From positions 17,174,001 to 17,238,000 of the forward strand of contig OX597832.1 in assembly GCA_951406725.2 (NCBI GenBank): DNA of 64,000 nt. Direction: 5' to 3'. The notes under the pieces are model-generated. The model ran no database searches and was not told where the DNA came from. It saw only the letters and a program-made list of their open reading frames with translations. Origin of the DNA: Octopus vulgaris (Eukaryota). A program made the translations under genes and the position numbers. This document shows, piece by piece, positions 9,328 to 63,577 of this stretch (its first letter is position 1; every line of letters starts with the position of its first letter).

Positions 9328-9380
9328 TTTGTCGAAATATTTTTTCGTCGTCTTGAGACCACGACCTGTTCACTGACAAA
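9328..9380 (-). ncRNA. Hammerhead-like motif, G3-C8 core variant, partly degenerate
   Basis: TTTGTC-A-GTGAACA-G-GTCGT(loop)ACGAC-GAAA-AAATAT-TT-C-GACAAA: helix I, core, helix II, GAAA, near-palindromic helix III. Confidence 0.5.
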
Positions 9381-9539
9381 AGCTTAAATTTTCAAGGGAG
9401 AGTACTCTTAAATAAAAAAAACGCCTATTATCTCCCGTACTTTACAGTTATATCCCTTCTTATTGTTTATTTCCCTTGGCGGGAAATATGCAAGCGAGGT
9501 AACTCTACGAACTCATTGAAATATAATCAGTTTCTCACA

Positions 9540-9636
9540 ATGGCGGGTCTTGTTGACTTCGTTATTTCTCTGATCCAATTAATCTGTCCACAGCCATGCT
9601 TTGACACATTTTTCGTGCACTATGATTTCTTTCATA
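9540..9636 (+). CDS. MPDU1: MPDU1 coding exon 1 (MAGLVDFVISLIQLICPQPCFDTFFVHYDFFH + 1 nt)
   Basis: ATG at 9540; peptide resembles the MPDU1 N-terminus (P..C(F/Y)D..FV..D..H); donor A|GTAAGT at 9637, phase 1, compatible with exon 2. Confidence 0.88.
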
Positions 9637-11847
9637 GTAAGTTAATTTATTCATCTTCATTTGAATATGTATTATTTGTTATAACCCACGCTGTTTTGAT
9701 TTCTTTTTTTCTCTCTTTACCTTATTGATTTGTAAAGCTTCCCGTTCATTAATCCACGTAAACACGAACCTATATATACATGTGCGCGCGCCCGCGAATA
9801 TTTATTTATGTTTTTTTGTTTTTGTTGTTGTTGTTTTTTTGGTTACTTTTATTCCACATCAGTTATCGATTGGAGTTCACATTGATTTTGGTGTTTTTGC
9901 GACAGAATCGCTCCGTCCAGCGGTACCGATCTTGCATCGAAACCATTTAAAAAATTACCGGCATTTTTTCCGCTCGACCTGTTTTTTTTTTTTTATTCGC
10001 TGCACAGAAACCCATCCCAAAATGGTTATCATTTCTGTTTTACCCAAATTTCCCTACGTATATTTTGTTAGGAACCAGTTGAACATTAAAGACGTGCTTA
10101 ATCCTTGCCCGGAATGAAAAAACCGTTCCTGCCGTGATCATCGCATCTTTCATTCCATGTACAAAGGTCATAACTTCATCGAGCCGGAAAAACTAAGGAG
10201 TAAAAATTGACGACGCCGGCAGGATTTGATCTCAGAATATTAAAAGCCTTAATAAGAACCATAATATTTGATGAGATCTGTGTGCAACAATAACGTCCGA
10301 ACTGAGGGAAATTTGGCTGCTATTTCTAGCAGATCGTGTGACCACATAGATAACACGATCAGAGAACGGAATTCAAAATGTACTTTTAATAATAATAATA
10401 ATAATAATAATGATAAATATAATAATGTTATTATTTAGAGTATGTATAAAATGTTGACTTGCTATAGTTTATTATATGTGAGAAGCTTTATGCCAGGTAA
10501 CATTGTAACTCAGTAAGATCATGAGATAAATTTGTCTGTGCCAGAGGTTAAAGATGCTTATAGACACAATAGGAAAAAAGCCGACACATGATAGCTGAAT
10601 AATTCAGTTGAAACAAATGACCTAGTGGGCGTTTACCTTTGTTGAAATACTATGCTTAATTTACCTACTGAGTTGTAAGCTAGTTGTAATTTAATGCATA
10701 TAAATATGCAGTGATCTTTTGAAAAGCAAATTGTTCCTATTACTTATGCATGCAATCTCTGATAAAATATATATATATATATATTCAGGTTATCAAGATT
10801 TTCATTTTATTTACTAGTTCTAGAGAACTAAACTGTCCATTAGTGCTCTCAATTCCACTGAGATTGGTGAAATATATGCTGTTCGTACCGGTGGCACGTA
10901 AAAGCACCCACTACACCTTTGGAGTGGTTGGCATTAGGAAAGGCATCCAGCTGTAGAAACTCTGCTAAATCAAGATTGGAGCCTGGTGCAGCCAACTGGT
11001 TTGCCAGTCCTCAGTCAAATCGTCCAACCCATGCTAGCATGGAAAGCGGACGTTAAACGATGACAATGATGATGATGATTTATGTTTTGCTTCAGGTGGG
11101 ACTGAACCTGGAACCATGTGGTTGGTAAGCAAGCTTCTTACCACATAGCCACTCCTACTTAAGCTATTTACCACACACCCACTCCTATAAGATATTTTTG
11201 TTAAAATTTATGTCCAATAAACTGGTTGTACTTCTACAATATACAAGATATTTTCAACAATTTTTTTGTAGAATTCTTAATAATATTTAATCATAAGAAT
11301 ATAATGGGATTTTTTTAAACATTGAATAGCAAGGCGGGTCCATCTCCATGAAATATCTATCAAAGGGGGTCCATAAGCAAAAAATTGTTTTAGGTGATCA
11401 TGCAAATTGCTAGAATCAAAGACAAAAGACCCTGAAATTACACCCTTCTGATTATTTTTATTTTCATAGTTTAGGCTGGATGAAGGGGCTACACCTATGG
11501 TTTTTGCAGGCCCTCTGAAATCAGAATGTAGTTCATCATCATCATCATAGTTTAATGTCCTCCTTCCATGCTGGCTTGGGTCGGACAGTTCGACAGGAGC
11601 TGGCCAGGCAGGAGCTTGCACGATACTTCTGTCTCTGTTTTTGGCACAATTTTTATGGCTGCGTACCCTTTTATAACACCAACCACTCTACAAAGTGGGC
11701 TGAGTGCTTTCTATGTGGCACCAGCACAGGTGAGGTCAGATTTGGTATGGTTTTTACAGCTGGATGCCTTTCCAAATGCCAACCACTTTACAGCGTCGAC
11801 TGGATGCTTTTTAAGTGCCATCAACATGCATGTATATATGTGTGTGT

Positions 11848-12110
11848 GTATTTAAGGGGCTCGGGCCACAAGCAGAGGTTAGAGACCCTTTTCGATTTAG
11901 ACGGGTAAAAATCAACTATATCAAATTGGGTACCTCTTGCTCTGTCTCAACCCTTGTTGACATTAAAATATGTGGTCACTTTGCTGGTGCTGCACCACAA
12001 GGAGAGGTTGGTGACCCTTTTTATGGTGTTATTGATATCTCGCAAAATATCTTTGCTTGCCAGACTGATCTCGGATTTGGCCGGATTGAGCAGGTGGCGC
12101 TTACTTAGTA
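11848..12110 (-). mobile_element. Penelope-like RT fragment, second copy
   Basis: LLNPAKSEISLASKDILRDIN...QFDIVDFYPS; homologous to 5110-5365 and ending at the same sequence. Confidence 0.75.
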
Positions 12111-13136
12111 ACTTTCTAAGGCAAGGAATCGTTGAGAGGGCAGGGAGCATTGGAGGAGGTTATCTTGTATTAGATGATGACCAGTTAGTGTGACAGAGAA
12201 ACAGAGAGACACAAACTAGTGTCTTGTTATAGAAGAGGTACATGGTTACCCAGCCAGAGAGAGAGAGATGTGTTAGATAAAGAAAGGACAGATTACACAT
12301 TGTAAATCTATCACATACTCCTAAAATGACTTGAAGGTAACAGATGGAAAGCTTTTAATAGTAGCTCTATCCAGTCAGAGTTGACCTGGGGTTAAACAAC
12401 AACCAGAGTGTATAAATAAATTGACAGTTGCATTAGAATGATAAAATATCTGGAATTCCTTTAGAAGTTTAACTGGCCAAATAACAGTTTCTGTTTAAGT
12501 AGGGCAACAGTTATAAATCAGAGAATGGCCAAACAATTCAAAAAATAGGCAATGTATATGTGTGTGTGTGTGTGTGTGTAAACATCATGTGGTTCTTGAA
12601 AGAGGCACAACAATGCTTCAATAATAAAGTTGTACAGTAGCTGTTGGGAAATATTAAATTTATGAAAATAATACCATTTGGTCGAATATTTTAATGTCAT
12701 GGTTACGTTATTCTGTTACAAATACCAAAACAAAGAAATCTTGCTTCTGCATATATATATATATATATTTTTATCTTATCAGCTTCTATTTTTATTGTGT
12801 AAGCGTTTCTTCTTTAAGGTCTACAACCAGAAATTAAATGATTGCCCACTAACACCTGCTGCTTGAGACACATGGATGTACTTCAGCTAACTCATAGCAA
12901 ATGTAAGGGACGTAATTGGATGGTTTGAGAAGAATGGGGTTTTTTTTTGTCATTATTGTTGTTTTGTTCTTATTTATTATTATTATTTTTTTTTTGCAAG
13001 TAGCTTACTTACCAACCATATAGTTCTGGGTTCAGCCCCTCTTGGGCAAGTGTCTTCTACTATAGCCTCGGGCCGACCTAAGCCTTGTGAGTGGATTTGG
13101 TAGACGGAAACTGAAAGAAACCCATCATAGATATAT

Positions 13137-61745: not shown

Positions 61746-62111
61746 TGAATACCCAGATTATAATAATGGAAATAAATTCGTCATTCAGCACAGTTTTCCC
61801 ACTAAAAGTCAAACCCAAGGGAGATTAACAATTAAAACGTATCATCCAAGAGTAGCACCCCTTGATTTCTTGTTTCCTTTACAAGACTTTCTTGTAAACT
61901 CCCATGGATTTTCGTCTTTTCATCCAAACTGGAAATGAACGCCATTCCTCCATGTGATTGGCTTGAAAACTTGCTACGGTATTTTCTCAACATGAAACCA
62001 CAGGTAGCCTTAATGCACAAAGAAATTTTATCCACAAATGCGGAGTTAAGCACTTATGCTCATTGTTCAATATTTACACACACACACACACACACATATA
62101 TATATATATAA

Positions 62112-62625
62112 TTTAAATATGCAGAAAATGGGGAAAACATTTGATTAGTAAACAAAACTTGACCAACATCGGTTAATTATTTTTTGATACAAAGCATAAT
62201 ATCTCTTACGGCAGTTTCGGCTGCCAATGTCAGTCGGTGCTTACAAAGAAAATTCCGAAAATAGTATTCGTCATTTTATAGTTCATTCAAATGTACCAGA
62301 AAGATGACAGATATTATTTTCGGAATTTTCTTCGTAAGCACGGACTGACATTGGCAGCTGAAACGGCCGTAAGAAATGTTAAGTTTTGTATTAGAAAATA
62401 ATTAACCGATGTTGGTGAAGGTTTGTTTGCTAATCAAAAGTTTTCCCCATTTTCTGTTTATTTAAATTTGATTCCTGATAAACTTTTGTTTATTCTGTTA
62501 TTACGTGTAACATGTGAGCTTGCATACACATGAACAGGAATAACATAGGTAAATGATATCGGTAGCAATAACGGATAATCTTATCCCTTAGACGGTTATT
62601 TCAAGCGTTAACCGTGCTTACCTTA
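62112..62625. mobile_element. Probable Penelope-like terminal repeat with inverted partial duplication (homolog ~54560-54940)
   Basis: ~62112-62285 is the reverse complement of ~62310-62470; bounded by (TA)n; contains GAAACGGCCGTA, a helix III-like palindrome. Confidence 0.6.
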
Positions 62626-62639
62626 TATATATATCATCA

Positions 62640-63300
62640 TATACTGAGAACCTTCTGAACTAGAGAGAAGGAAACCATGGTGTTCCTCTGCAGGACATTC
62701 GTCCTCAGTCGTCTGGACTACAGCTTCCAGCTATGGTCATCCCATAGTATGAAATTAACAGCGGAACTTGAAGCAATCCAGCAAAGCTTCACAAGAAAGA
62801 CTGTCCCATTGCAACACCTCTGCTACTGAGAAAGGCTGAAGCAGCTAAGACTCTAGTACCTGGAGCGAAGGTGGGAGAAGTATGCAGTAATATACATCTG
62901 GAAGGGACTGTGCCAAAATTTTGGCATTGGAAGCTACACAAATGCCAGGACGGATCGTCACTACACAGTGCCAAAGATCCCAGCATTGCGTCGCGCTTCA
63001 GGACCAGTTACCGCAACAGCCTGGGTTTCAGGAGCCCACAGCTTTTTAATATTCTCCCAAACGCCTAAGGGACCTACACAAAGCGGATTTAGGTGTTTTC
63101 ATATCAAAACTGGATCTCTTCCTGACGAGAGTCCCAGATTAACCTGCCTCGCAGCTGGAGGCGCAATGAGTGTAGCGACATCAAATTCCCTTATTCACCA
63201 AAGTGCCATATGTCAGAGGAAGGACTCCAAAATAGCAGTGTAGCAAAACGGCAGTGCCCCAGCATGGCCAAAACTTTGAGCTGAAAATGGTAAAACAATT
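62640..63300 (+). mobile_element. CR1/L2-group LINE 3' fragment, related to 48225-48575
   Basis: FVLSRLDYSFQLWS...ELEAIQQSFTRK and RTSYRNSLGFRSPQLFNILP; frameshifted; tail GTGCCCCAGCATGGCCA...GAGCTGAAA then long (TA)n. Confidence 0.85.
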
Positions 63301-63535
63301 AAGCAATAATATATATATATATATATATATATATATATATATATATATATATATATATATATATATATATATATATATATATATGTATATATATATATAT
63401 ATATATATATATATATATATATATATATATATATATATATATATATATATATATTATATATATATATATATATACATATATATATATTCGCCATGATAGA
63501 TCGCTAGCCACTACACATTCTTTATTTTCTCTCCC

Positions 63536-63577
63536 TGTTTCTTTCTGTGGAAGAGCGTGGGGTCGAAACGTAAAAGA
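63536..63577 (+). ncRNA. Degenerate minimal hammerhead-like motif in a (TA)n-flanked repeat (~63490-63675)
   Basis: TCTTT-CTGTGGA-A-GAG(CGTGGG)GTC-GAAA-CG-TA-AAAGA; A6 replaced by U and helix II weak. Confidence 0.4.

Follow-up and report, generated by a model that had tools for sequence, protein, structure and literature searches.

Hammerhead-like motifs with alternative 3-8 pairs in the terminal repeats of octopus Penelope-like elements

Four repeats of the window and their families

The stretch analysed here, referred to as the window, comprises 64,000 nt, rich in simple repeats, of contig OX597832.1 (17,174,001-17,238,000) from the 2.8-Gb genome of Octopus vulgaris. It holds copies of four repeats in which an earlier note, made from the letters of the sequence, had recognized the architecture of the hammerhead ribozyme with different versions of the catalytic 3-8 pair; we refer to their families as A (the repeat at 59295), B (9328), C (34638) and D (63536). 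All four cores are present where the note had placed them (Table 1). Families B, C and D are pseudo-long terminal repeats (pseudo-LTRs, pLTRs) of Penelope-like elements (PLEs), and family A is a PLE-like monomer of 352 nt that lacks an open reading frame (ORF).

The individual motifs are weak evidence on their own, and the support comes from their families and from a random sample of the genome. The window copy of B is decayed, with a mismatch in helix I and two extra A residues, and that of D carries a G-G mismatch in helix II; both fail a strict descriptor, which the copies of A and C pass. The majority sequences of B and D pass the descriptor that their window copies fail, and the consensuses of all four families fit the minimal type I hammerhead: three helices surround the core, helix I holds the ends, and A15.1-U16.1 and H17 are present. 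Searches of the genome with the four repeats gave 53, 48, 40 and 63 matches, from the best 40 of 725-1,938 candidates, and the majority sequences, built from 30 loci per family, were compared with a descriptor that left positions 3 and 8 free. The first sets of loci were picked by likeness to the window copy and lean towards its core. The counts of 3-8 pairs given below include all de-duplicated copies that span the core.

In the majority sequence of family B, a helix I of 7 bp is combined with G3-C8, a G after A9, a helix II of 5 bp, a 6-nt palindrome as helix III and U17. Family C has a helix I of 3 bp followed by a 4-nt bulge and 3 further bp, U3-A8, a G after A9, 5 bp in helix II, a 4-nt palindrome and U17. 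The corresponding features of D are 5 bp in helix I, C3-G8, A6U, an A after A9, 4 bp in helix II, a 4-nt palindrome and U17, and those of A are 6 bp in helix I, C3-G8, U4C, 4 bp in helix II, an 8-nt palindrome and C17. The extra purine before helix II that the note had ascribed to B, C and D is therefore confirmed, but A also has an extra base there, a C, and its additional A or U before G12 makes helix II close on a C-A or C-U mismatch instead of the G10.1-C11.1 pair of the other three families. The core of A, previously read as C3-G8, also carries U4C; a sister subfamily of A (locus L256) has the canonical core and G10.1-C11.1, and the pair adjacent to it shows a compensatory change. The canonical core CUGANGA is the majority form of none of the four families.

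The complementarity of positions 3 and 8 is retained in the family consensuses, as the note would have it: G3-C8 is present in 104 of 119 copies of B and U3-A8 in 76/77 copies of C, and a Watson-Crick pair is found in 59/61 copies of A and 72/80 of D. Position 7 of family D varies freely (G in 38 copies, U in 19, C in 12, A in 11), and U6 is held in 78 of 80. The z-scores of monomer folding of the consensuses range from -1.4 to -2.5.

That AT-rich repeats merely happen to fit a loose descriptor is a reading we regard as very improbable. Loose scans do produce chance matches: that of the window returned 18 rows, mostly chance-like, and the 150 Rfam matches listed, of the 246 obtained for the window, include no hammerhead family. 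However, two of the window copies fit less well than the consensuses of their families, and the motifs lie where PLE hammerheads are known to lie. Moreover, a relaxed descriptor applied to 60 evenly chosen 10-kb stretches (600 kb) found 16 motifs, against a mean of 2.9 (range 0-7) in 25 block shuffles and none in either the complement or the reverse control. The 3-8 pair is Watson-Crick in 15 of these 16 motifs (12 C-G, 2 U-A, 1 G-C) as compared to 26 of 72 in the shuffles, and the remaining motif is a mutated copy from a C-G family. The linkage to PLEs together with these controls largely rules out chance. The prediction that a search for CUGANGA would miss most motifs is borne out by the sample, where this core occurs in 4 cases and 12/16 would be lost. 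The 13 excess motifs per 0.6 Mb scale, as a rough extrapolation, to about 60,000 intact-looking motifs genome-wide. The commonest motif of the sample (5/16; L214, L217, L220, L227, L238) comes from a family that has U4C and whose loop II is 3 nt long.

A scan of all 451 collected loci (1.98 Mb, enriched for the target families) gave 150 unique motifs. All nine clusters with at least two members have a Watson-Crick 3-8 majority (6 C-G, 2 U-A, 1 G-C), as do 15 of the 21 singletons.

Linkage to Penelope-like elements

The proposed linkage to Penelope reverse transcriptase (RT) and GIY-YIG ORFs is found in three families, in different ways. At L090, the family D repeat is preceded, at a distance of 600 nt, by a GIY-YIG ORF (Pfam E 0.001, below the cut-off), and the repeat is downstream of this endonuclease, on the same strand, in 25/29 further loci, with a background of 10 matches per 600 kb. 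The Cys-rich linker of this endonuclease presumably points to a PLE of the Neptune or Nematis type. The 3' end of family C encodes the start of an ORF, a peptide that shares 18 of 23 residues with the N-terminal end of an intact ORF of 1311 aa; the link of C is by N-terminal homology only.

In family B, three of 30 loci chosen for their upstream junction (L425, L434, L441) have, about 1 kb upstream and on the same strand, an endonuclease 46-50% identical to the 1311-aa PLE; another of the 30 shows an inverted piece of RT, and L451 extends the match to the 1311-aa protein (49%, E 2e-62). No parent ORF was found in ten stretches searched upstream of the repeat. A GIY-YIG remnant beside a family B fragment at L252 was rejected as the parent, as only the query locus of 30 contained the repeat. 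Across 120 family loci, the 12 listed ORFs that were scanned yielded two GIY-YIG fragments.

The 1311-aa ORF contains a YVDD motif and has a GIY-YIG match at its C-terminus. It also matches (E 2e-11) the RT of a 781-aa element whose RT and GIY-YIG are confirmed by Pfam, and it occurs in tandem and inverted. Nearly all of the 150 scored copies of this family are 100% identical, therefore it must be very young. Its motif has C3-G8, a G before helix II, U17 and a helix II of 5 bp; in the copy at L242:6440-6385 (- strand), position 9 is C and loop III is a non-palindromic 2-nt sequence. The intact 781-aa PLE family, with many near-identical copies (L158-L177, L241, L246), has U3-A8 and no base inserted after A9, and another PLE family (L244, L245, L254-L256) has U4C and U-U at 10.1-11.1.

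Copies of family A adjoin the U4C/U-U family in 2/5 loci, a possible helper relationship. A GIY-YIG ORF at L054 was considered as a partner of A and discarded, since it belongs to the 1311-aa family, whose loci do not contain the 59295 repeat. On contig C25, family A forms five tandem 352-nt units, in which the tail of one unit runs into the head of the next.

Families A, B and C each show two alternative 3' ends, separated by about 45-55 nt, as well as 5'-truncated partners in inverted, head-to-head orientation and TA-rich flanks. An alternative tail, inverted partners and AT- or TA-rich targets are the signature of PLEs (PMC8557442, PMC11167929; here and below, published work is cited from the parts of the text available).

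Further observations concern family B. The main 5' boundary of its copies resembles the 3' end of an intron, with a branch-point-like motif, a pyrimidine run and AG (L340, L341, L421-L450), which we take to recall the Penelope of Drosophila virilis, where an intron ends at helix I. Contig C16 holds 17 of the 30 best long loci and most of the copies with G3-G8, as in a local or chromosome-biased burst. The family is also present in contigs of four sequencing runs with four other organism labels, the differences being compared outside the core only.

Table 1. Features of the window (positions from the first letter of the window)
Feature	Position	Strand
Core CCGAUGA (family A)	59333-59327	-
Core GUGAACA (family B)	9373-9367	-
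Core UUGAAAA (family C)	34674-34668	-
Core CUGUGGA (family D)	63545-63551	+
Family B solo pseudo-LTR; 90% identical, consensus 16-207 of 209; source PLE related to the 1311-aa family	9182..9381	-
Family B minimal type I hammerhead motif; G3-C8, G after A9, U17; decayed copy	9328..9380	-
Older remnant resembling family B; 69% identical, consensus 33-146; core outside the aligned part	9052..9165	-
Family C pseudo-LTR, left arm of head-to-head inverted pair; carries the U3-A8 motif	34607..34691	-
U3-A8 motif in the left arm, span of the earlier note	34638..34684	-
Family C pseudo-LTR, right arm; 3' end gives the first codons of the PLE ORF	34708..34845	+
Second U3-A8 core, right arm; helix II mismatch	from 34715	+
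Family A, 5'-truncated copy of the ORF-less 352-nt PLE-like monomer, also found in tandem arrays	59132..59397	-
Family A type I hammerhead motif; C3-G8, U4C, 10.1-11.1 mismatch, 8-nt palindromic helix III, C17	59295..59339	-
Family D solo pseudo-LTR between (TA)n tracts; PLE with Cys-linker GIY-YIG endonuclease	63486..63666	+
Family D minimal type I hammerhead motif; C3-G8, A6U, A after A9; copy with helix II mismatch	63536..63577	+

Apart from these features, the window contains a tRNA-like match at 21039-21110 (- strand; 41.2 bits, above the Rfam gathering score) and an abundant dispersed repeat (3896-4379, 25416-26253, 46615-47315 and 61169-61468), which also formed tandem units of 152-184 nt and which is probably an octopus short interspersed element. 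Elsewhere in the collected loci, L029:1-633 (- strand) carries a fragment of a Tc1/mariner-type transposase (DDE_3, HTH_Tnp_Tc3_2).

Covariation of the 3-8 pair and the question of cleavage

The repeats had been regarded as unrelated. This is true at the level of DNA, where the best cross-match between family consensuses has an E of 0.05, but not at the level of the elements, as the parents of B and C both resemble the intact 1311-aa PLE. Judging from pairwise similarity, rather than from a tree, B, C and the 1311-aa family share a common lineage, so that a single PLE lineage would hold C-G, U-A and G-C versions of the 3-8 pair. Helix II has stayed at 5 bp in these three sister families through compensatory changes. 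At least three multi-copy families have changed both position 3 and position 8, and the new bases are complementary in all of them; if the changes were independent and random, we estimate that three complementary double changes would arise by chance about once in 27 cases. We judged selection from such counts between families because most of the variation within them reflects neutral decay of copies once inserted. In the active hammerhead conformation, positions 3 and 8 are in contact, and their pair adds little to the ordinary secondary structure. The covariation between families points to selection, in the past, on an active-like core.

The note had proposed selection for cleavage, and in this past sense the proposal has partial support. 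It does not extend easily to the present, and a number of observations weigh against it or against the assignment of the motifs as a whole. In family B, G3-G8 is found in 10/119 copies. The nine that were aligned share one change in the loop, and those listed have different flanks, therefore a mismatched G3-G8 master copy has spread; divergence does not give the order of G-G and G-C, as it equals 0.029 in both groups with the loop G. The youngest intact sister family, that of the 1311-aa ORF, has A9C in 36/37 matches (not de-duplicated), and one older relative has A9 and U4C. The 5' ends of copies, counted in a 7-nt interval at the cut site and not selected via the hammerhead, show no significant excess: 3/24 in B (2.2 expected, p 0.38), 7/38 in C (3.8 expected, p 0.075), 3/20 in A (1.9 expected, p 0.3) and 0/2 in D, and the self-complementarity of the helix could likewise give inversions at that place. 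The 5' ends precede the core in 56/89 copies of B and 41/83 of C; the templates were therefore mostly uncut. The G3-G8 sub-lineage, A9C and the lack of an excess of 5' ends where the cut would fall argue that these elements can spread without cleavage. In addition, RNAcofold yields the double-hammerhead fold for the 59295 consensus alone (1/4), no ORF was linked to family A, the whole 1311-aa protein gives no Pfam match, and 6/21 singletons of the all-loci scan, probably chance matches, have a non-Watson-Crick 3-8 pair.

A rival reading is that the motifs, though derived from PLE hammerheads, cleave no more, their fold being kept for another purpose, for example as a structure for protein binding or priming close to the 5' end of the element, or simply drifting, with the G-C and U-A pairs as relics or as purely structural pairs. 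The mismatched sub-lineage, the loss of A9 in the most active family and the prevalence of copies with an uncut 5' part fit such a view, as do the frequent U4C, the fixed A6U, the 10.1-11.1 mismatches and the finding that hammerhead mutants have no effect on insertion in vitro (PMC11167929). We nonetheless consider it unlikely, since complementarity was restored in at least three multi-copy families in which both positions changed, and an ordinary secondary structure would gain little from it. At the other extreme, the motifs could be efficient ribozymes that cut multimers into monomers or circles in vivo, like the retrozymes that lack long terminal repeats (non-LTR retrozymes). This is most plausible for the 59295 family, with its five joined tandem units, its dimer folding as a double hammerhead and a monomer size that fits such retrozymes (PMC7229834). 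However, U4C combined with a 10.1-11.1 mismatch is hardly expected of an efficient ribozyme, the 5' ends are away from the cut site, across which many copies extend, so that this possibility appears rather improbable.

We give a probability of about 0.7 to the intermediate reading, in which the four motifs are minimal type I hammerheads in PLE terminal repeats (three ORF-linked families and one without an ORF), predicted to cleave themselves weakly and to depend on a partner copy or the element protein, and the 3-8 swaps are likely traces of earlier selection on the pair in the active site. A possible scenario, modelled after Frangieh et al. (2024), is that the element protein nicks AT-rich DNA and that reverse transcription starts at either of two internal sites of the pLTR RNA and continues to the RNA 5' end, which would produce short solo or inverted pLTR copies with the whole hammerhead; as such copies keep the motif, the template would be mostly uncut RNA. 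The palindromic helix III would be formed between two motifs (after Cervera and De la Pena, 2014). Cleavage would then be slow or conditional and dispensable for each round of copying, and mismatched intermediates could survive until a compensating change is fixed. It is tempting to go further and to suggest that the sister families of one PLE lineage carried three states of the pair (C-G, U-A, G-C), that the G3-C8 family, which a rough extrapolation puts at thousands of copies, represents a natural hammerhead that is active and whose living mismatch sub-lineages show how swaps arise, that the A6U core is active as well, and that most of tens of thousands of hammerheads are invisible to standard searches; this larger picture we put forward tentatively, as possible but somewhat doubtful.

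Comparison with known hammerheads

The closest known counterparts are the minimal hammerhead ribozymes in the pseudo-LTRs of metazoan PLEs described by Cervera and De la Pena in 2014 (PMC4209133), with low activity as dimers and none as monomers. They share with the octopus motifs the type I topology, the short helix I, the extra base between positions 9 and 10.1, the palindromic helix III and the dispersed solo and opposite-strand copies. Their G10.1-C11.1 pair is matched by three of the four octopus families, and U3-A8, the state of family C, occurs in about 1,300 Schistosoma matches. The inserted position differs, with H in their consensus and G in 9328 and 34638. A family-wide G3-C8 or A6U was not found in the main text or supplement of that paper as available, and two of its three supplement files have no octopus entry. 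The novelty suggested by the note was overstated, as both U3-A8 and an inserted base following A9 had already been published for PLEs (PMC4209133, PMC3088659).

As for mechanism, the PAc Poseidon element of Anolis (Frangieh et al. 2024, PMC11167929) is similar in the location of its hammerhead in the pLTR near the start of the ORF, in its AT-rich targets, in two RT start sites that give an optional tail and in uncut RNA as the main template. Its hammerhead cleaves only with the protein and is not required for insertion in vitro, and the C3G/G8C double mutant partly rescues cleavage. Unlike there, where G3-C8 was engineered, this pair is the natural family state in octopus B.

Natural variants comparable to the octopus cores, with U3-A8, U4C, A6C, U-U at 10.1-11.1 and reduced activity, were described by Perreault et al. 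in 2011 (PMC3088659), and the activity of A6C by Naghdi et al. in 2020 (PMC7151607); unlike the octopus families, these variants come mostly from microbes, phages and viroids, and neither A6U nor G3-C8 is listed among them in the available text of the two papers. The 59295 family resembles the non-LTR retrozymes (PMC7229834; bioRxiv 10.64898/2026.07.22.740005) in that its monomer, about 350 nt long, lacks an ORF, is arranged in tandem, carries a type I hammerhead and has ends like those of PLEs, and differs in its non-canonical core, its mostly dispersed copies and in being known from DNA alone.

Hammerhead descriptors, and the calls of PLEs that "lack a hammerhead", should be repeated with the 3-8 pair and positions 4 and 6 left free. 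About 150,000 PLE-linked hammerhead variants were reportedly collected by Lunse et al. in 2017. Neither a natural G3-C8 or A6U hammerhead nor a paper on octopus hammerheads was found in the open literature as available, a search that did not cover Lunse 2017 and Arkhipova 2017, either of which may list G3-C8 or A6U; G3-C8 appears only as an engineered variant in the consulted parts of PMC11167929, PMC8495972 and PMC3884650. Thus, G3-C8 and A6U are possibly the new parts, while the ribozyme class, the host elements and the C-G and U-A pair types were already known. It is still debated why PLEs carry hammerheads, and one paper asks, in the part available, whether hammerheads simply parasitize the elements. 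The sister families provide a natural C-G, U-A, G-C, G-G and A9C series in similar contexts for asking if cleavage matters. The G3-C8 family is likely the natural form of a mutant made in the laboratory and, if so, it would complete the evolutionary support for a pair known from structure and mutagenesis.

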